DNA from: Candidatus Acetothermia bacterium
Lineage (GTDB): Bacteria > Bipolaricaulota > Bipolaricaulia > M55B111
Length of the DNA stretch: 28,165 bases
NCBI GenBank assembly: GCA_046543235.1
Contig: JBKGZT010000012.1
Span: 1-28,165 of the forward strand
Reading direction: 5' to 3'
Part shown: positions 8,005 to 20,482 of the stretch, one piece after another
Layout: the number at the start of each line of letters is the position of its first letter
How positions within the stretch are numbered: position 1 is the first letter of the stretch
The notes under the pieces: generated by a model
The model's input: the letters and a program-made list of their open reading frames with translations, nothing else
Database searches by the model: none
Told to the model about the DNA's origin: nothing
Made by a program: the position numbers and the translations under genes

Positions 8005-8649
8005 ATGGACATAAAAGAGTCAATCCAGGAAGTAACCCGGGAAACGGTAAACTTCCCCATGCTCTTTGGTCCGATTTTCATTACCTCCTTCCTCAACGGG
8101 GTCCTGGCATCCGACGCGTTCATAAGAGCTCTGGGGGCTGGAGGCAGCCTGGTCCTTAGGCTGATGATCCTGGTACTATTAACCCCCCTGGCGGCAGGAA
8201 TGACAGTATTTCTGGATCGGATGATAAGTAACCAGAAGAGTCCCGGGCTCGCGGGTGCGTTCACGGCGGTCGGCCGGAAGTACCTTCCCTTGGTCCTGAT
8301 CAACTTCGTCGCACTGATGGCAACTGTCCTCGGTCTCTTCCTCTTCATCCTCCCGGGGATTTACCTCTACGTAAAGTTCGTGTTTACCACCCAGGAAGTC
8401 CTGCTTGGAGGGGAGACAGATCTGACGTCCGCCCTGGAAAGCAGCTGGCAACACACCGAAGGGCGCTGGTTGACCGTATTTAAGATCCTCCTCGTCTTCG
8501 AAATACCGCTCCTGTTCTTCAGCTTTTCGCTCGGCGGGTTACCGCCCGGGTGGGGAGCAACTTTAAGCGTCGTGGTTGGAACTGCCTTCCAGACTTGGCT
8601 CACTCTCGTGGTTACCCACCTCTATTTACGGATCACGACTGGAGAGTGA
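8005..8649 (+). CDS. Multi-pass membrane protein of unknown function
   Basis: About 5 hydrophobic segments and the pattern GLFLFILPGIYL...ALESSWQHTEGRW, common to YciC/GDPD-membrane-domain-like proteins; 4 bp after gabT. Confidence 0.8.
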   Translation: MDIKESIQEVTRETVNFPMLFGPIFITSFLNGVLASDAFIRALGAGGSLVLRLMILVLLTPLAAGMTVFLDRMISNQKSPGLAGAFTAVGRKYLPLVLINFVALMATVLGLFLFILPGIYLYVKFVFTTQEVLLGGETDLTSALESSWQHTEGRWLTVFKILLVFEIPLLFFSFSLGGLPPGWGATLSVVVGTAFQTWLTLVVTHLYLRITTGE

Positions 8650-8769: not shown

Positions 8770-8787
8770 CTTCTTGAGGTGATTTCG

Positions 8788-9156
8788 ATGGCTTTAATAG
8801 GATACATGGAGGGAACCGACCCGGATCTTCTCAGCAGTCTCTGCGCCCAGGGACACGACACCGCACCACTGGGTAACGGAACGGATGGGCACGGCAAGTA
8901 CATCGCCCACGTCACGAAGTCCGACGGCTTCGACGTCGTCGTGGCGTATCTTCACAAGCTCGTTTCGGTCTCCGGTATGGAGCACGTGACGATTGACGAC
9001 AGGCTCTTTGCCTGTAGGAGACACGACATTCCCGTCATTCTGGTAGTCCCTAACGAGTTCAAGGAAAAGGCAAAATCCAGAATGAAGGAATCCAGGGATT
9101 ACGTAGAACTCGCTTCTCCCGAAGAGCTCGAAGCGAGGGTAAAAGAGATAATTTAG
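8788..9156 (+). CDS. Hypothetical protein (122 aa), alpha/beta type
   Basis: SD GAGGTGA at 8776-8782, ATG 8788, own promoter upstream and hairpin downstream; globular, protein-like composition. Confidence 0.8.
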   Translation: MALIGYMEGTDPDLLSSLCAQGHDTAPLGNGTDGHGKYIAHVTKSDGFDVVVAYLHKLVSVSGMEHVTIDDRLFACRRHDIPVILVVPNEFKEKAKSRMKESRDYVELASPEELEARVKEII

Positions 9157-14612: not shown

Positions 14613-15497
14613 GTGGTTTCTCTTTTAGCGAAAAAGCTCCAGAACGGCCTGAGGAGAGGATTTTCTCTTGGGAATCTAACGACCTGGGGGGTCGGGGGAC
14701 CCGCAGAGTTCTTCTGCGCGCCGGATTCAATCGGAGAAGCAGTAGCGGCGGTGGATTTTGCCTGGGAGGAGGAGCTTCCGTACAGGATCATCGGCAATGG
14801 AAGTAACGTGTTAATAGGAGACGAAGGGTATCCGGGATTAATAATCAACCCGAGAAGCGGTCTCGGCGGAATAGAAGTAGAGGGTAAAACTCTCAGAGCT
14901 GGTGCCACGGCATCCCTGAACGAACTCGCGGTGACCGCTAACGAATACGGCAGTCAGTGTTTGAATTTTCTTACGGGAATACCGGGTACCGTCGGCGGCG
15001 GGGTCGCCATGAACGCCGGGGCCCATGGAAAGGAAATATCCGAGTACTTAAAAACAGTCTCGTTTATAGACGAAAGCGGGAAGGTGAGGAAAACATCGGA
15101 TCTCTCGGAGGCCTTCGGATATCGAGAAAGCCCGTTCAGGGAACCCGGAAAAATAGTACTAGAAGTCGAGTTCGAACTCGACTACGACGAAAGACAACCG
15201 GAGATGGAACAGCTACTTCACTCTCGCAAAGAAAAAATCCCCTACGAAGAACGGACCGCAGGATGTGTATTCAAGAACCCCGACCACCACGAAAAGACGG
15301 CCGGAGAGCTACTCGATAAAGCAGGAGCCAAAGGACTGCGAGTCGGGGATGCGGTAGTCTCACACCAACACGCCAATTTCATACTCAACAAAGGCCATGC
15401 CACGGCCAAAAACATCCAAAACCTAATTGACATTTGCCGTCACAGGGTGTATAAAGAGTTTGGGGTGACACTCGTCACCGAAGTTATGGTCATTTAG
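14613..15497 (+). CDS. murB: UDP-N-acetylenolpyruvoylglucosamine reductase
   Basis: TTW.VGGPA, IGNGSNVL, GIPGTVGG...MNAGA, F.YR.S, AGCVFKNP, HANFI.N.G. Confidence 0.95.
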   Translation: MVSLLAKKLQNGLRRGFSLGNLTTWGVGGPAEFFCAPDSIGEAVAAVDFAWEEELPYRIIGNGSNVLIGDEGYPGLIINPRSGLGGIEVEGKTLRAGATASLNELAVTANEYGSQCLNFLTGIPGTVGGGVAMNAGAHGKEISEYLKTVSFIDESGKVRKTSDLSEAFGYRESPFREPGKIVLEVEFELDYDERQPEMEQLLHSRKEKIPYEERTAGCVFKNPDHHEKTAGELLDKAGAKGLRVGDAVVSHQHANFILNKGHATAKNIQNLIDICRHRVYKEFGVTLVTEVMVI

Positions 15498-15519
15498 GAT
15501 TGACACCCTGAAAACGTCT

Positions 15520-15548
15520 TTGCATCCATAGAAAGTATATTATATTAT
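15520..15548 (+). promoter_or_regulatory. Internal promoter for ftsA-parA-ftsZ
   Basis: TTGCAT (15520-15525), 17 bp, TATTAT (15543-15548). A TTGACA also lies at 15500-15505. Confidence 0.6.
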
Positions 15549-15813
15549 TACTTAAAGTTGATAGTAGGTGGATTTACGATAGAGCGGACTTCATAAAGCT
15601 ATATAGTAGTCCGCCTGGAAAACTTTGAAAAATGGGGGCTGCTTATCTCCGTTCAGTTGGGGGATTGAGCGGGGATGGGTGAAGTCATGGTTTTGGAAAC
15701 TCCACTACAAAAATGGATTCAGGGGCAAACAAAATTTTCAAATATTTTTCCTATAACGAAGAGTTCATCAGGGATTTCGGGTTGGTTTGGCGTGATTAAT
15801 AGGTGGTGATTTA

Positions 15814-17055
15814 ATGGAAAGCGAGGATTTGACAGTGGGGCTGGATATCGGTACTACTAAAATTGTCGCTTTAGTTGGTAACGTTGTAGATGGTTCAATA
15901 GAAATAGTGGGAATAGGCCAGGCCCCTTCCAAGGGGCTGGAAAAGGGCGTCGTAGTGGATATCGGACAGGCGACGAATTCGATCAGAAAGGCGGTCAGGC
16001 AGGCGGAAAAGATGGCGGACGTGGAAATAGATTCCGTCTACGCTGGTATTACTGGCAAACACATAAACTACCTGAACAATACCGGCACCGTGTCGGTAAA
16101 CAGGTCGGACGGGGTGATCCGTCAGGAAGACGTCAGGCGCGTAATTGAAACGGCAAAGGCCATGCAGCAAATACCACCGCAGTCCGAAATGATCCACATA
16201 ATTCCCCGTCAGTTCGTGGTCGATAACCAGGAAGGTATTTCCGACCCGGTCGGCATGACGGGCACACGACTTGAAGCCGACGTTCATATCGTTACGGGAG
16301 CAACCACGGCGGTCCATAATCTAACCAGGTGTCTTGATTCGCTCGGTATCGATATAGATCAGTTAGTTCTGGAACCTCTTGCTTCTTCTCACGCCGTATT
16401 ATCCTCGGCGGAAAAGGAGCTGGGAGTGCTATTAATGGATATCGGCGGTGGGACTACGGATCTGGCAGTATTCAAAAAAGGGGATATCTGGTTTTCCAAA
16501 GTACTGCCAGTTGCAGGAGAGCACATGACCAACGATATAACCGTTGGCCTTCAAACGCCCCTGGAAGTGGCAGAACAGATCAAGGTCGAGCACGGAACGG
16601 TATTTATCGACGAAGAGAACCAGGAGGAAGAAATCGAGGTAGCCACTGTAGGAGGAGACAAGGAAAAACGAGTGCCCCTGAAAAACCTGGCAAAGGTTAT
16701 AGAGCCCAGGGTGGAAGAGATATTCGACCTAGCTTTCCAGGAGCTCGAAGACGCGGGTTATCGGGACCTGATCCCTTCCGGAGTAGTACTGTCAGGTGGC
16801 ACCTCTCTACTAAACGGGATCGTAGAATACGGGAACCGTCACTTCGACCTGCCAATTAGACGAGGATCGACCCCGGACGACATTCATGGGTTGAGGGACG
16901 TCGTGGAGTCTCCGATTTACGCCACCTCCGTTGGTCTGCTGAAATACTCCGTGGGCTCAAACGATTACATGAGAAACGGAAAAAGGACGGGTAGAGGTGG
17001 CGAAACGGTTGTTTCGGATATTTTCAGCTGGCTGGCAAAGTTCTTCCGCGGGTAA
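15814..17055 (+). CDS. ftsA: Cell division protein FtsA
   Basis: GLDIGTTKI, DIGGGTTD, GVVLSGG, YATSVGL, C-terminal amphipathic helix IFSWLAKFF; SD AGGTGGTGA. Confidence 0.97.
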   Translation: MESEDLTVGLDIGTTKIVALVGNVVDGSIEIVGIGQAPSKGLEKGVVVDIGQATNSIRKAVRQAEKMADVEIDSVYAGITGKHINYLNNTGTVSVNRSDGVIRQEDVRRVIETAKAMQQIPPQSEMIHIIPRQFVVDNQEGISDPVGMTGTRLEADVHIVTGATTAVHNLTRCLDSLGIDIDQLVLEPLASSHAVLSSAEKELGVLLMDIGGGTTDLAVFKKGDIWFSKVLPVAGEHMTNDITVGLQTPLEVAEQIKVEHGTVFIDEENQEEEIEVATVGGDKEKRVPLKNLAKVIEPRVEEIFDLAFQELEDAGYRDLIPSGVVLSGGTSLLNGIVEYGNRHFDLPIRRGSTPDDIHGLRDVVESPIYATSVGLLKYSVGSNDYMRNGKRTGRGGETVVSDIFSWLAKFFRG

Positions 17056-17120
17056 CCGTCTAACCAACTGGAGGCCGCGATAGCTATTAAAAAAGCAAAT
17101 ATCAGCAAAGCCGATAAAAG

Positions 17121-17861
17121 ATGAAAAAAATCGCCATTATCAATCAGAAAGGGGGTACCGGTAAAACTACGACCGCGGTAAACCTGGGAAAGGGGCTGGC
17201 GGATAGGGGTATTAAGACCTTATTAATTGACGTCGACCCCCAGGGAAACCTCGCGACGTGGTTCGGTAAGGACTTTGAGAGAACCCTCTACCACCTGCTG
17301 GTGGAAAACGAAACGCCGGAAAGTTGTATCGTGCAGGTGGAAGAAGATCTTTACATGATTCCGAGCGACGAATCTACCGCCCAGGCGGAAAAGATACTTA
17401 CCGGCAAAACCAGCCGGGAGACTATGCTAAAGCGTAGACTGGAAGGACTTGACTCCTACGAAATCGTAGTGCTGGACTGCCCACCGAGCTTGAGCCTACT
17501 TAATCAAAATGCACTCGTTTACGCCGAATCCGCTTTCGTTCCCGTAAGTATGGATTACCTGGCCCTTGTCGGGGTTAGAAACATCTTGAAGAACATCAAG
17601 CGGATTAACGAGCTTCTGGAGTACGAGATAGAAGTAGAGCTGGTTATACCCACGTTTTTCGATATTAGGACGAACGAAAGCAAGGAGATACTGGAGAAAC
17701 TGAAGGATCACTTCGATGGAAAAGTAACCGAACCGATCAGGACAAACGTCCGGCTCTCCGAATCTGCAAGCTATAACCAATCTATTTTTGATTACGCTCC
17801 CAATTCCCACGGAGCCGAGGACTACGAAAAGTTAGTAGAAAGGGTGATAGAAGATGCATAA
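17121..17861 (+). CDS. ParA/Soj-family ATPase
   Basis: Deviant Walker A NQKGGTGKTT, DVDPQGN, Walker B LDCPPSL, Soj-like TFFDIRT and IRTNVRLSE motifs; no MinD-type C-terminal membrane helix. Confidence 0.93.
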   Translation: MKKIAIINQKGGTGKTTTAVNLGKGLADRGIKTLLIDVDPQGNLATWFGKDFERTLYHLLVENETPESCIVQVEEDLYMIPSDESTAQAEKILTGKTSRETMLKRRLEGLDSYEIVVLDCPPSLSLLNQNALVYAESAFVPVSMDYLALVGVRNILKNIKRINELLEYEIEVELVIPTFFDIRTNESKEILEKLKDHFDGKVTEPIRTNVRLSESASYNQSIFDYAPNSHGAEDYEKLVERVIEDA

Positions 17862-19074
17862 AAAAGAAAAATCAGTGGGTAACGATCCCCTTGACGGGGT
17901 CATGGAAGATTTCTATAGATCCGGTTCAAAGGAGGAGGATAACTCATCTTCCGAAGACGAAAAAGCTTCTGGCGACCCAGGAAAGCAAGCAAAACACACC
18001 TCCAAGGAACCGGATTCCTACAACCCCGACGATTACAACCTCGCTAATTTAATGGTTATCGGTGTCGGCGGTGGGGGAAACAATGCCGTAAACCGGATGT
18101 CCGAAGCCGGAGTAGGCGGAGTGGAGCTAGTTTCCATAAACACCGACGCCCAGGTCCTGGAGATAAATAATGCGGATCGATACATCCAGATCGGGAAAGA
18201 CCTGACGGGAGGACTGGGTGCGGGCGGCAATCCGGAAATCGGGCGGGAGGCAGCTCTGGAAAGCCAGGAGACGATCGAAAAACTGCTGCAGGGCGTGGAC
18301 ATGCTATTCATAACATGTGGAATGGGCGGGGGAACCGGTACGGGTGCCACCCCCGTAATCGCCGAAGCCGCCCAGCAAATGGAAATCCTTACAACCGGCA
18401 TAGTAACAAAGCCTTTCTCTTTTGAGGGCCAGGAACGGGCGGAAAAAGCCCACCGGGGCCTGAAGAACCTGGTCGACAGGGTCGATACGATAATCACGAT
18501 ATCCAACGATCGGTTGCTGGAGGTCGCTCCTGGGGACATATCGTTAATAAAAGCTTTTGGCATGGTCGACGAAATACTCATGCAGGGAGTCAAAGGAATC
18601 TCCGAATTGATCACGGTTCCCGGGATGATTAACCTGGATTTTGCCGATCTCGAGAACGCGATGAAAAACGGTGGTCCTGCACTAATGGGTATAGGGGAGG
18701 CAGAAGGGGACGATAAAACCGAAAAAGCCGCGGAGAACGCGATATCTTCCCCTCTTCTTGAAGGTTCCATCAAGGGGGCCCGGAACATCATCATGAACTT
18801 CACGGGGAATCCCGAGCTATCCCTGGAGGAAGTCACGAGAGCGGCCGAACTCGTCAAGGGTCAGGCCGACGAGGAAGCGGATATAATGTTCGGTACCACC
18901 ATAAAAGACGGCCTGGAGACGGTAAAGCTAACTATAATTGCAACCGGCTACAATAGCCGACAAGAGGGAAGCGATGAAGAAGCTATCAGAAACATCGCCC
19001 TCGCGGAGGATGAAAACGGCAACCTGGCCGACGAAGACGACCTGGATACCCCGACTTTCCTGAGAAAAGGTTAA
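17854..19074 (+). CDS. ftsZ: Cell division GTPase FtsZ with ~60-aa N-terminal extension
   Basis: VIGVGGGGNNAV, GLGAGG.P, tubulin signature GMGGGTGTG, T7 loop INLDFAD, C-terminal peptide LDTPTFLRK; SD GGGTGA inside the parA end; ATGCATAA 8-nt overlap with the parA stop. Confidence 0.97.
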   Translation: MHKKEKSVGNDPLDGVMEDFYRSGSKEEDNSSSEDEKASGDPGKQAKHTSKEPDSYNPDDYNLANLMVIGVGGGGNNAVNRMSEAGVGGVELVSINTDAQVLEINNADRYIQIGKDLTGGLGAGGNPEIGREAALESQETIEKLLQGVDMLFITCGMGGGTGTGATPVIAEAAQQMEILTTGIVTKPFSFEGQERAEKAHRGLKNLVDRVDTIITISNDRLLEVAPGDISLIKAFGMVDEILMQGVKGISELITVPGMINLDFADLENAMKNGGPALMGIGEAEGDDKTEKAAENAISSPLLEGSIKGARNIIMNFTGNPELSLEEVTRAAELVKGQADEEADIMFGTTIKDGLETVKLTIIATGYNSRQEGSDEEAIRNIALAEDENGNLADEDDLDTPTFLRKG

Positions 19075-19301
19075 GGGCACAAAATATTCCGAACCCCTCC
19101 ATACAAATAAAGTACCGAGTGCCTGGTTACAAAGGACGTACTCTCTTCACCAAGTTCCGGCGATGTTCGGGCTTAGTATTTTCGCTTTTCCAATCTTCCC
19201 GGCCGGTTCTCGGCCCCCCTCGTTACCCTCACCGTGAAGTGGCAGCTTCCGGAGGACTGGTACGGCGGTAAATTCTTAAACCTCAATTCTCTAGGGTCGG
19301 C

Positions 19302-19396
19302 AATAGCTGGAAAAGCCCCTGCTCGGGTTCCTCAACACCCTCGCTAGCGCTTTGGTCAAGGGCACCCAAACCCGAGCAGGAGCCTTACCAACTATT
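19302..19396 (-). other. 95-nt rod-like inverted repeat (structured RNA, processing site or terminator)
   Basis: AATAGTTGGTAAGGCTCCTGCTCGGGTT pairs without gaps with AACCCGAGCAGGGGCTTTTCCAGCTATT (28 positions, 3 G-U, 1 U-U), enclosing a G-U-rich inner stem. Confidence 0.7.
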
Positions 19397-19450
19397 TACA
19401 AGTTTTAAGATTCTAAATTGCCTCTTTTGAAAATAACTGAAAAACACAGC

Positions 19451-20482
19451 TCAGTAGAAGAGATCCTTCATCTCCAGAAAGTGATCGTCTATCGGCTTGG
19501 GAGAATTCGCTATTACTTTCTCCAGACCAACCGCTTCAATCCGGTTACCCTTGGAGGCCGTCATGTAACCGAACTCGCCTTCCAAACAAAGTTCCACTGC
19601 CTTGACTCCATATCGGGTTGCAAGAAGCCTGTCGAAGGCGGTCGGTTCCCCCCCTCGCTGTAAGTAGGCCAGGGTGGTTACCCTTATCGGCATATCCAGT
19701 ATCGCGGCGAGCTGGTCCTTGAGATAGTGCCCTATTCCCCCCAGCTTGACGTGGCCAAACGAATCAGTTCCCGACTCCCTGGTTATCTGTTGATCGACTT
19801 CCTTCGGGCTGGCCCCCTCGGATATGACGATGATCGAGAAGTTTTTCCCGGCCGACTCGCGTTCCTTGATCCGCTCCTTGACGTCTTTTACCTTGAACGG
19901 TTCCTCCGGGACCAGGATGGAGTCGGCACCGCCAGCAAGACCTCCGAACAGAGCTATCCAGCCGGAATCCCTGCCCATTACCTCGAGTACCATGACCCGA
20001 TGGTGAGAGTAAGCCGTCGTATGAAGCTGATCCACCGCCTTCATCACCTGTGAAAAAGCAGAATTAAACCCGATAGAGTATTCGGTCTCGGCGAGATCGT
20101 TGTCTATCGTCTGGGGGATTCCTACGGCGTTTATGTCGTAGTCCCTCAACTTATGAGCCACTCCGAGCGTATCGTCCCCGCCTATCGGTATTAACGCATC
20201 CAGTTCGTTGGCTTCGTAGTTCTCCACGGCCTGATCGGGGCCACCTTCGATAGAAAACGGGTTGGTTCTGGAACTTCCCAAAAACGTACCACCGACTGGC
20301 AGGATTCCTGAGACGTCGCCCCTCTCGAGCTCTTCTTTGTCGTCTTTAAGCAATCCGGCCCAGCCGTTTTTGAAGCCCAATACGTCAACCCCTTCGTCCT
20401 TTGCCTTTCGAACAATAGCTCTGATTGCCGCGTTAATGCCGGGAGAATCTCCTCCACCGGTCAAAATCCCGAGTTTATCCAT
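19451..20482 (-). CDS. pfkA: 6-phosphofructokinase (PfkA family; phosphoryl donor uncertain)
   Basis: ILTGGGDSPGINA, GGT.LGSSR, IGGDDT, PQTIDND, EVMGRDSG, LQRGG.P..FDR; start at ATG 20482 after SD AAGGTGA. Confidence 0.93.
   Translation of the reverse strand: MDKLGILTGGGDSPGINAAIRAIVRKAKDEGVDVLGFKNGWAGLLKDDKEELERGDVSGILPVGGTFLGSSRTNPFSIEGGPDQAVENYEANELDALIPIGGDDTLGVAHKLRDYDINAVGIPQTIDNDLAETEYSIGFNSAFSQVMKAVDQLHTTAYSHHRVMVLEVMGRDSGWIALFGGLAGGADSILVPEEPFKVKDVKERIKERESAGKNFSIIVISEGASPKEVDQQITRESGTDSFGHVKLGGIGHYLKDQLAAILDMPIRVTTLAYLQRGGEPTAFDRLLATRYGVKAVELCLEGEFGYMTASKGNRIEAVGLEKVIANSPKPIDDHFLEMKDLFY

Follow-up and report, generated by a model that had tools for sequence, protein, structure and literature searches.

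How a bacterium finds its middle when it carries neither Min nor nucleoid-occlusion proteins is an open question, and it is raised anew by a three-gene cluster, ftsA-parA-ftsZ, in Candidatus Acetothermia bacterium (contig JBKGZT010000012.1, positions 1 to 28,165; the whole of this 28,165-nucleotide stretch is called the window below). Between the two division genes lies a gene for a Soj-like ParA ATPase, and the FtsZ encoded behind it opens with a conserved peptide homologous to the N-terminal tail of a small adaptor protein, which in sister lineages is encoded directly after the orthologous parA. What is a ParA doing at this place, and with what does it work? The comparisons below make it likely, if well short of certain, that a domain swap has occurred, FtsZ having taken the place of the adaptor's DNA-binding domain, so that a ParA bound to the nucleoid now has FtsZ as its direct partner and probably as its cargo. 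The locus has the following features:

15814..17055, + strand: ftsA, 413 aa (TIGR01174 435.5 bits, cut-off 175.85; Pfam FtsA and SHS2_FTSA)
17121..17861, + strand: parA, a 246-aa Soj-like deviant Walker-A ATPase (KGGTGKTT; AAA_31 164 bits, CbiA 80 bits)
17842..17847, + strand: GGGTGA, read off the sequence within the 3' end of parA, 6 nt ahead of the ftsZ ATG; a putative Shine-Dalgarno-like site
17854..17861, + strand: ATGCATAA, read off the sequence, the ftsZ ATG overlapping the parA TAA
17854..19074, + strand: ftsZ (TIGR00065 390 bits, cut-off 295.2)
17854..17925, + strand: FtsZ residues 1-24, the conserved N-terminal peptide (MHKKEKSVGNDPLDGVMEDFYRSG), homologous to the ParA-adaptor N-terminal tail
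17926..18027, + strand: FtsZ residues 25 to about 58, an acidic linker of variable length, probably disordered, unalignable between genera and with a ratio of nonsynonymous to synonymous polymorphism (pN/pS) of 0.69
18028..19074, + strand: FtsZ core, C-terminal linker and C-terminal peptide (Tubulin 166.7 bits, FtsZ_C 92.7 bits)
19039-19071, + strand: the FtsZ C-terminal peptide DLDTPTFLRKG

The first-pass annotation of this DNA had described a full ParA gene between ftsA and ftsZ, a parA stop overlapping the ftsZ start, and a window devoid of parB, minC and minE. All of this was borne out: the open reading frames (ORFs) occupy the positions listed, both ATG and TAA fall within 17854-17861, and none of the three genes is among the window ORFs. 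The overlap is preceded by GGGTGATA ahead of the ftsZ start in all 16 loci that lie on a single contig (L001-L017). The product of the third gene is an FtsZ by its GTPase domain, its FtsZ_C domain and its equivalog score, the last of these lying above its cut-off. Its Pfam domains extend over residues 66-225 (Tubulin) and 274-366 (FtsZ_C), and it ends in a C-terminal peptide which we take to be the FtsA-binding one.

The genome containing the window is metagenome-assembled (a MAG); it amounts to 1.32 Mb, is spread over 97 contigs and is 87% complete, and the annotation had allowed that the arrangement might be peculiar to this one assembly. It is not. The ParA was used as a query against 40 relatives, which together with the window's own genome (G000) make 41 Bipolaricaulia genomes (G000-G040). 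An orthologue of 72-89% identity is found in 13 of the 14 other genomes of the same genus (g1) and in all three of a second genus (g2) of the same family (f1), and in all 17 genomes with this ParA the order is ftsA-parA-ftsZ. Sixteen of these loci, the window included, are on one contig; in the remaining genome (G011) the contig breaks inside parA, and the next one opens with the 3' end of parA followed by ftsZ. Since the sole g1 member without the ParA (G004, 70% complete) is also without an FtsZ match, its ftsA-parA-ftsZ region is probably unassembled. By comparison, ftsA adjoins ftsZ directly, with no parA between them, in 13 of 13 ftsA-ftsZ loci of other Bipolaricaulia genera. DNA of the window was also found in five metagenome runs from hypersaline lakes and microbial mats. 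Positions 15700-19070 are covered by single Logan contigs in each of runs X1, X2 and X4, and a 527-nt contig of run X5, which belongs to a separate study, bridges the parA/ftsZ junction (17448-17974). Misassembly is ruled out by these contigs together with the order kept in 17 genomes.

A further difference among these genomes concerns the number of FtsZ proteins. A second FtsZ paralogue was found in none of the 23 genomes having this ParA or its orthologue (genera g1 and g2 of f1, and families f5 and f7), while 16 of the 18 genomes without it have two (44-52% identity to the FtsZ of the window), the exceptions being G019 (one) and the incomplete G004 (none). The genomes being related, this complementarity may simply follow the clades.

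What sets the FtsZ of these 17 genomes apart is its beginning. About 58 extra residues stand ahead of the usual FtsZ start in the protein of the window. Unfused Bipolaricaulia FtsZ proteins begin 11-18 residues before the GxGGGG motif (13 of 13 loci), and in the extended ones the GGGG motif is reached only after 67-80 residues. In a whole-genome search with FtsZ, alignments began at query residue 1-7 only in the 17 parA-insertion genomes, and at residue 39-64 in all others. The two features go together: all 17 genomes with parA before ftsZ have the extension, and none of the 13 other Bipolaricaulia ftsA-ftsZ loci has it. Residues 1-24 are near-constant over both genera, S7, G9, D11, P12, L13, M17, F20 and Y21 being invariant, and they are followed by a linker which cannot be aligned between g1 and g2 and differs in length, its frame nevertheless remaining open in 16 of 16 loci. 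Over 16 genomes the pN/pS was 0.10 for peptide residues 7-23 and 0.12 for residues 7-16 (that is, upstream of Met17); it came to 0.69 in the linker and to 0.07 where the FtsZ core begins. Because residues 7-16 are under purifying selection with synonymous change free, the peptide appears to be translated and selected, its true start being, on this evidence, the codon that overlaps the parA stop. Translation starts at Met17 or at the core were rejected on the same grounds. Automatic annotation can hide the peptide, a matter of some practical importance, since in at least one public record annotation from the internal Met has cost it half its length.

The full-length FtsZ model was poor throughout (mean pLDDT, the predicted local distance difference test, 49), and the linker lay below 50 within that poor model. 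A short helix at residues 16-22 occurs in both this model and that of the adaptor; with residues 1-64 at low confidence these are hints only.

The origin of the peptide is indicated by relatives in which the ParA is not associated with division genes. All four genomes of family f5 possess an orthologous ParA (61-64% identity) away from ftsA and ftsZ, and the gene is followed, through a four-base stop/start overlap (ATGA), by an ORF of 83-86 aa. A third lineage, known from metagenome contig L088, has a ParA 59% identical to that of the window, again away from ftsA and ftsZ and with an overlapping adaptor ORF downstream, the N-terminus of which nearly matches the start of the g2 FtsZ. The adaptor ORFs of f5 and L088 range from 83 to 107 aa. 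A database search revealed 34 relatives, 49-107 aa long, whose only annotation is that of hypothetical proteins from Bipolaricaulota/Acetothermia. Members of this family (A1) begin with a conserved peptide, which leads through a variable linker to a C-terminus weakly resembling a ribbon-helix-helix (RHH) domain; an AF2 monomer (mean pLDDT 65) has two C-terminal helices, and the adaptor profile had no matches among PDB sequences at E<=10. We regard the adaptor as a probable ribbon-helix-helix DNA-binding protein and the ancestral parA-adaptor module as probably a DNA-partition system.

The N-terminus of FtsZ (A2) and the adaptor (A1) were aligned by hhalign N-terminus to N-terminus and in register, with a probability of 96% and an E value of 4.5e-9 over 26 columns, and single pairs of FtsZ N-termini and free adaptors gave BLASTP E values of 8e-7 and 3e-6. 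M1, S7, D11, P12, L13, M17, F20 and Y21 are invariant in both contexts. A hidden Markov model (HMM) built from adaptor peptides only, when run against the 25,252 six-frame ORFs of the window's own genome, had the FtsZ ORF as its best match, at a marginal E value (0.098; next 2.0). When the full adaptor profile was run over the 41 genomes, its matches within f1 fell in 3 of 19 genomes (G000 included) and were all FtsZ N-termini; a free-standing adaptor was not found in these 19 f1 genomes. Searching 5.8 billion proteins with the peptide profile gave 57 matches, comprising 34 FtsZ proteins (388-408 aa), which carry a plain FtsZ label in public records, and 23 small adaptors, with no other fusion among them. 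An exhaustive profile search of 1.84 billion cluster representatives gave six at E<=0.001: a 61-aa FtsZ N-terminal fragment, three adaptors, and the proteins P0070 and P0071. In that set the FtsZ clusters are probably represented by unfused members. By homology and by position alike (N-terminal, directly after the orthologous parA), the start of FtsZ can be classed as an A1 adaptor tail.

Several other proteins and loci resemble the adaptor or its surroundings. P0070 (1733 aa) consists of many tandem units, each adaptor-tail-like with two arginines, a His-Asp-Pro-Leu/Ile stretch and a Met-containing helix-like stretch; the protein may be a string of motifs that contact ParA, or the resemblance may be fortuitous. 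In P0071 (827 aa) a sequence like the second half of the peptide is repeated six times. In Omnitrophota (L069:3001-4141) a ParA of 43% identity is followed by an overlapping ORF of 126 aa, and in family f7 (L025:6001-7019) one of 40% identity by an overlapping ORF of 90 aa; the N-termini of both small ORFs have basic residues and then a DPL or NPL motif, which suggests a wider family of ParA adaptors with such tails. The f5 module (L021-L024) is flanked on one side by lar-type nickel-cofactor genes (PP-loop ATPase, AIR-carboxylase-like, nickel insertion protein) and on the other by endonuclease V fused to a methylguanine-methyltransferase DNA-binding domain, and no mobile-element genes were found in these conserved chromosomal surroundings.

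The ParA itself belongs to the ParA/MinD superfamily, with the motif NQKGGTGKTT and both the AAA_31 and CbiA scores above their cut-offs. Among 23 aligned ParAs (alignment A3) the residues K10, G11, G12, K15, T16, T17, D37, D39, D119, R183 and R211 are invariant, and with them the signature lysine of the deviant Walker A and the aspartates of Walker A' and Walker B. The first-pass annotation had pointed to arginines in the motifs TFFDIRT and TNVRLSE as matching those with which Bacillus Soj binds DNA non-specifically. Both motifs are present, and R183 and R211 align with arginines of Thermus thermophilus Soj (1wcv), the closest solved structure (E 3.3e-42). A figure legend of PMC3778016 names R189 and R218 as DNA-binding arginines of B. 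subtilis Soj; their equivalence to R183 and R211, aligned here to the T. thermophilus protein, is plausible. It was also correct that the C-terminal membrane helix of MinD is lacking, as the protein ends just past the ATPase fold, and the MinD model (TIGR01968) matches residues 4-144 only, at 43.6-43.9 bits against a cut-off of 212.9. The protein likewise scores below the NCBIfam ParA_partition model (NF041546, 100.6 bits, cut-off 180), and it matches only part of the Pfam MipZ profile (positions 3-131 of 262, 34 bits), beneath the much stronger AAA_31 match, so that it is classed with neither MinD, ParA_partition nor MipZ.

A maximum-likelihood tree sets the ftsZ-linked ParAs together on one side of a branch with a support of 94/91, recovered in 100% of 200 bootstrap trees, and the adaptor-linked ParAs share a 100/99 group with them. 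Of the earlier suggestion that this ParA might form a clade of its own, the separate branch stands; the notion of a separate ancient clade does not, for it groups with adaptor-linked, probably partition-type ParAs (59-64% identity). Between f1 and f5 the identity is 61-64% for ParA, about 58% for FtsA and 58-59% for the FtsZ core. Because the value for ParA is close to those for FtsA and the FtsZ core, vertical descent with one relocation is a better fit than a recent acquisition from a plasmid or phage, and we would describe the protein as a repurposed chromosomal ParA.

The genome of the window contains a single ParA-like gene. In this genome (87% complete) no match was found to ParB_N, MinC_C, MinE, SepF or ZapA, DivIVA gave a sub-threshold match only, and the sole match to the MinD model is this ParA, below cut-off; a separate parAB or minCDE system, the presence of which the annotation had left to be checked, was thus not found. 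ParB_N is present in 2 of the 41 genomes, neither of them in f1 (the window's own genome and the 18 other f1 genomes being negative); the same search matched 10 of 14 control genomes. MinC_C and MinD above cut-off were each found in 0 of 41, and the ParB_N searches of the window's own genome and its relatives found no Noc-type ParB-like protein. The annotation had spoken of an orphan ParA. That term no longer fits, as its likely partner is the FtsZ N-terminal peptide, the homologue of the adaptor tail. Its larger proposal, that the ParA is dedicated to FtsZ in a candidate division-site system, gains support from the order kept in two genera, from the failure to find Min, ParB or another ParA, and from the tail on FtsZ.

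From these observations the following course of events may be proposed. In an ancestor of the two Bipolaricaulota genera a chromosomal module of parA and a small adaptor would have been rearranged, leaving parA between ftsA and ftsZ and the adaptor tail and linker fused in frame to the N-terminus of FtsZ. We infer that ParA dimers with bound ATP cover the nucleoid by means of the conserved arginines of Soj type, and that the FtsZ peptide, on its flexible acidic linker, binds these dimers and probably stimulates their ATPase. In the available portions of PMC12462528 and PMC7993993, the partners of ParA/MinD proteins (ParB, ParG, MinE, PomX and McdB) are described as activating the ATPase by short N-terminal tails on unstructured regions, the peptides alone being sufficient in vitro. 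A filament would present many tails at once, which should make polymerised FtsZ a multivalent and effective partner or cargo. A gradient or flux of ParA could then position polymerised FtsZ on the nucleoid, and thereby the Z-ring at mid-nucleoid or midcell, in cells where no Min system or ParB was found. As to the sign of the regulation and its purpose, we favour positive, cargo-type positioning of the ring as in PomXYZ, accomplished here without scaffold proteins. In its strongest form, which we put forward tentatively and hold to be rather less than an even chance, the FtsZ filaments would be both cargo and ATPase activator of a two-protein ParA system, the simplest division-site selector known. 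It is equally tentative, and follows from the same reading, that a partition machine became a Z-ring placer taking its cue directly from the nucleoid, with no recourse to Min, Noc, MipZ/ParB or scaffolds of the Pom kind.

A number of observations weigh against this proposal. All of the genomes are MAGs or drafts, 70-99% complete, and genes that were not detected in them are to be read as not found rather than as absent. The peptide of the window's own FtsZ is recovered genome-wide at only E 0.098, the strong statistics coming from the profile-profile and pairwise comparisons. Basic residues are important in other activating tails, yet positions 2-6, where they occur in FtsZ, are loosely conserved (pN/pS 0.62), and in the L005 lineage the start of FtsZ is mostly acidic with a single lysine. 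The same FtsZ gene is annotated from Met17 in P0068 (388 aa) and from the upstream start in P0040 (404 aa). The ancestral role in DNA partition remains conjectural, because the adaptor matches to RHH_3 (21 of 21) and RHH_1 (20 of 21) are all under the Pfam cut-offs, Foldseek found nothing for the adaptor model in the PDB at E<=0.001, and a search for centromere-like repeats beside the f5 module yielded only short two-copy matches. The prediction of the complex counts on both sides. It was made from a ParA dimer with ATP, Mg and FtsZ residues 1-40, using custom alignments and ligands, and the verdict was "weak support" (score 0.55, the best of three controls reaching 0.01). The runs agreed in at least 66% of contacts, with a partner pLDDT of at least 53. 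In the benchmark, 58 of the 80 solved complexes attained the mark, as did 2 of the 110 mismatched pairs, counts which are only rough for custom inputs, and scores of 0.60 or less belonged to only 7 of the 80 solved complexes and to both passing mismatches. It may be that the mark was attained here because the predictor remembers ParA-peptide complexes already solved.

A tail that binds ParA might also serve to keep FtsZ away. Here the nucleoid-bound ParA would hold FtsZ by its tail and hinder ring formation over DNA, in the manner of nucleoid occlusion or MipZ, and the ring would form where ParA is scarce, between segregated nucleoids or in DNA-free zones. To our knowledge MipZ and MinCD are both spatial inhibitors of FtsZ from the ParA/MinD family; the role of nucleoid occlusion appears vacant, as no Noc-type protein was found; and the evidence that links tail and ParA fits such negative control equally well. 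Sequence alone cannot separate it from the cargo model. However, about 35 residues of probably disordered linker set the tail apart from the interfaces at which FtsZ polymerises, so that binding need not block assembly. In known systems, moreover, the homologous tails serve to mark a cargo and to stimulate the ATPase, and are not themselves inhibited, according to passages of PMC12462528 and PMC7993993. We consider negative control unlikely.

That ParA has kept a role in chromosome segregation we consider distinctly improbable. The Z-ring or young septum would then be an ATPase-activating landmark replacing the centromere complex, and the tail would clear ParA from mid-cell DNA, or couple nucleoid separation to division, rather than position the ring. 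DNA partition was probably the ancestral job, since the sister-lineage orthologue is paired with a probable DNA-binding adaptor and ParB occurs in only 2 of 41 genomes; R183 and R211, moreover, have been retained. What speaks against continued segregation is that without a site-specific DNA-binding partner, and with no free adaptor found in the 19 f1 genomes, there is no defined locus to move, and that a parA within the ftsA-ftsZ pair points to a divisome cargo, ParA/MinD genes being often encoded beside their cargo according to the sections of 10.1101/2022.06.09.495121 that deal with gene order. A tolerated relic of an insertion, in which ParA and the N-terminal stretch do nothing together, or in which the latter provides translational coupling and no more, is the least likely of the rival readings, and very improbable indeed. 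We are aware that mobile par modules do insert into genomes, the linker evolves almost freely (pN/pS 0.69), and one public annotation begins at Met17; but a relic would hardly show selection on the peptide about as strong as that on the FtsZ core, extending upstream of Met17 with synonymous change free, nor every catalytic residue of ParA retained over two genera, nor a frame open through differing linker lengths in 16 of 16 loci, and the residues kept in the peptide are those kept in free adaptors. We therefore retain the cargo model as the preferred one.

Upstream of the trio, which closes a cluster of division and cell-wall genes, the gene order is murD, ftsW, murG, murC, murB, a 316-nt gap and ftsA. 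The gap (15498-15813) is without ftsQ, and FtsQ_DivIB_C had no match in the whole 87%-complete genome. A sigma-70-like site within it (15519-15548) is no better than chance, and a promoter and terminator scan of 15300-19600 gave counts no higher than in shuffled sequence. There was no RNA data set among the five runs containing window DNA. Two ORFs 5' of murD, 8005-8649 (214 aa) and 8779-9156 (125 aa), gave no Pfam match at E<=1e-5.

We found no paper on an FtsZ with a ParA-partner tail or on the order ftsA-parA-ftsZ in the open-access and bioRxiv literature, the supplementary gene-neighbourhood tables of ParA/MinD surveys (e.g. 10.1101/2022.06.09.495121) lying outside that scope. Papers on Bipolaricaulota/Acetothermia, including 10.1101/2025.11.21.689855, a preprint on the first Bipolaricaulota strain in culture, report binary fission at midcell, and the portions available to us do not describe these genes. 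The data point to a previously undescribed mode of division-ring placement, a ParA-type positioning system with the activator tail on FtsZ itself. If this is true, nature provides a minimal design consisting of a nucleoid ATPase and a tagged polymer; the case would also show clearly how, in evolution, the swap of a single domain can turn a DNA-partition module over to a protein cargo, and it would suggest a simple route for turning any protein into ParA cargo.

Known ParA/MinD systems place many different cargos, and do so by way of separate adaptors; here the adaptor tail appears on FtsZ. In MinCDE, as is proposed here, an ATPase of the ParA/MinD family governs placement of the Z-ring. Unlike MinD, the protein of the window has no membrane helix and matches the MinD model only below cut-off and over its N-terminal half; none of the 41 genomes gave a match to MinC, nor did the window's own give one to MinE. 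MipZ of Caulobacter is a ParA-like ATPase acting directly on FtsZ, again as proposed here. MipZ depends, however, on ParB, which was not found here, and the Pfam MipZ match is partial; we know of no ParA-partner tail on Caulobacter FtsZ.

The resemblance to Soj/ParA and Spo0J/ParB is one of the ATPase, which is Soj-like and keeps the Walker motifs and two arginines, and of the manner of contact, the partner touching ParA with an N-terminal peptide (from the passages of PMC12462528 on this pair). It differs from ParA-ParB-parS in that ParB_N was not found in the window's own genome or in 39 of the 41 genomes, in the sub-cut-off ParA_partition score, and in the partner, which is not a CTPase clamp. 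In the type Ib system ParF-ParG of plasmid TP228 a small ParA works with an RHH centromere-binding protein that has a flexible N-terminal tail. The sister-lineage module looks to be of this kind, its small ParA being followed by an overlapping ORF of about 85 aa whose N-terminal tail is basic and whose C-terminus is RHH-like; what the ParG tail does is treated in a passage of PMC12462528. In contrast to ParF-ParG, the sister-lineage module is chromosomal and conserved in Bipolaricaulota, and its ParA is closest to chromosomal Soj, while in the window FtsZ stands in place of the RHH domain, which would make this no longer a DNA-partition system.

Two further systems position proteins by way of the nucleoid. 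In PomXYZ of Myxococcus xanthus, nucleoid-bound PomZ places the Z-ring positively, and the activator has a short conserved N-terminal peptide on an unstructured region (from the part of PMC7993993 devoted to it). Whereas there separate scaffolds bear the peptide and then recruit FtsZ, here it is on FtsZ, and intermediate proteins are not evident, no search aimed at PomX/PomY homologues having been made. In McdA-McdB, which positions carboxysomes, a nucleoid-bound ParA likewise places a protein cargo by means of an adaptor with an N-terminal tail (mentioned in PMC7993993), and McdA (6non) is a distant PDB match to the ParA of the window (E 3e-16). McdB is a separate adaptor that binds the cargo, whereas at the ftsA-parA-ftsZ locus the proposed cargo and the tail are one polypeptide.

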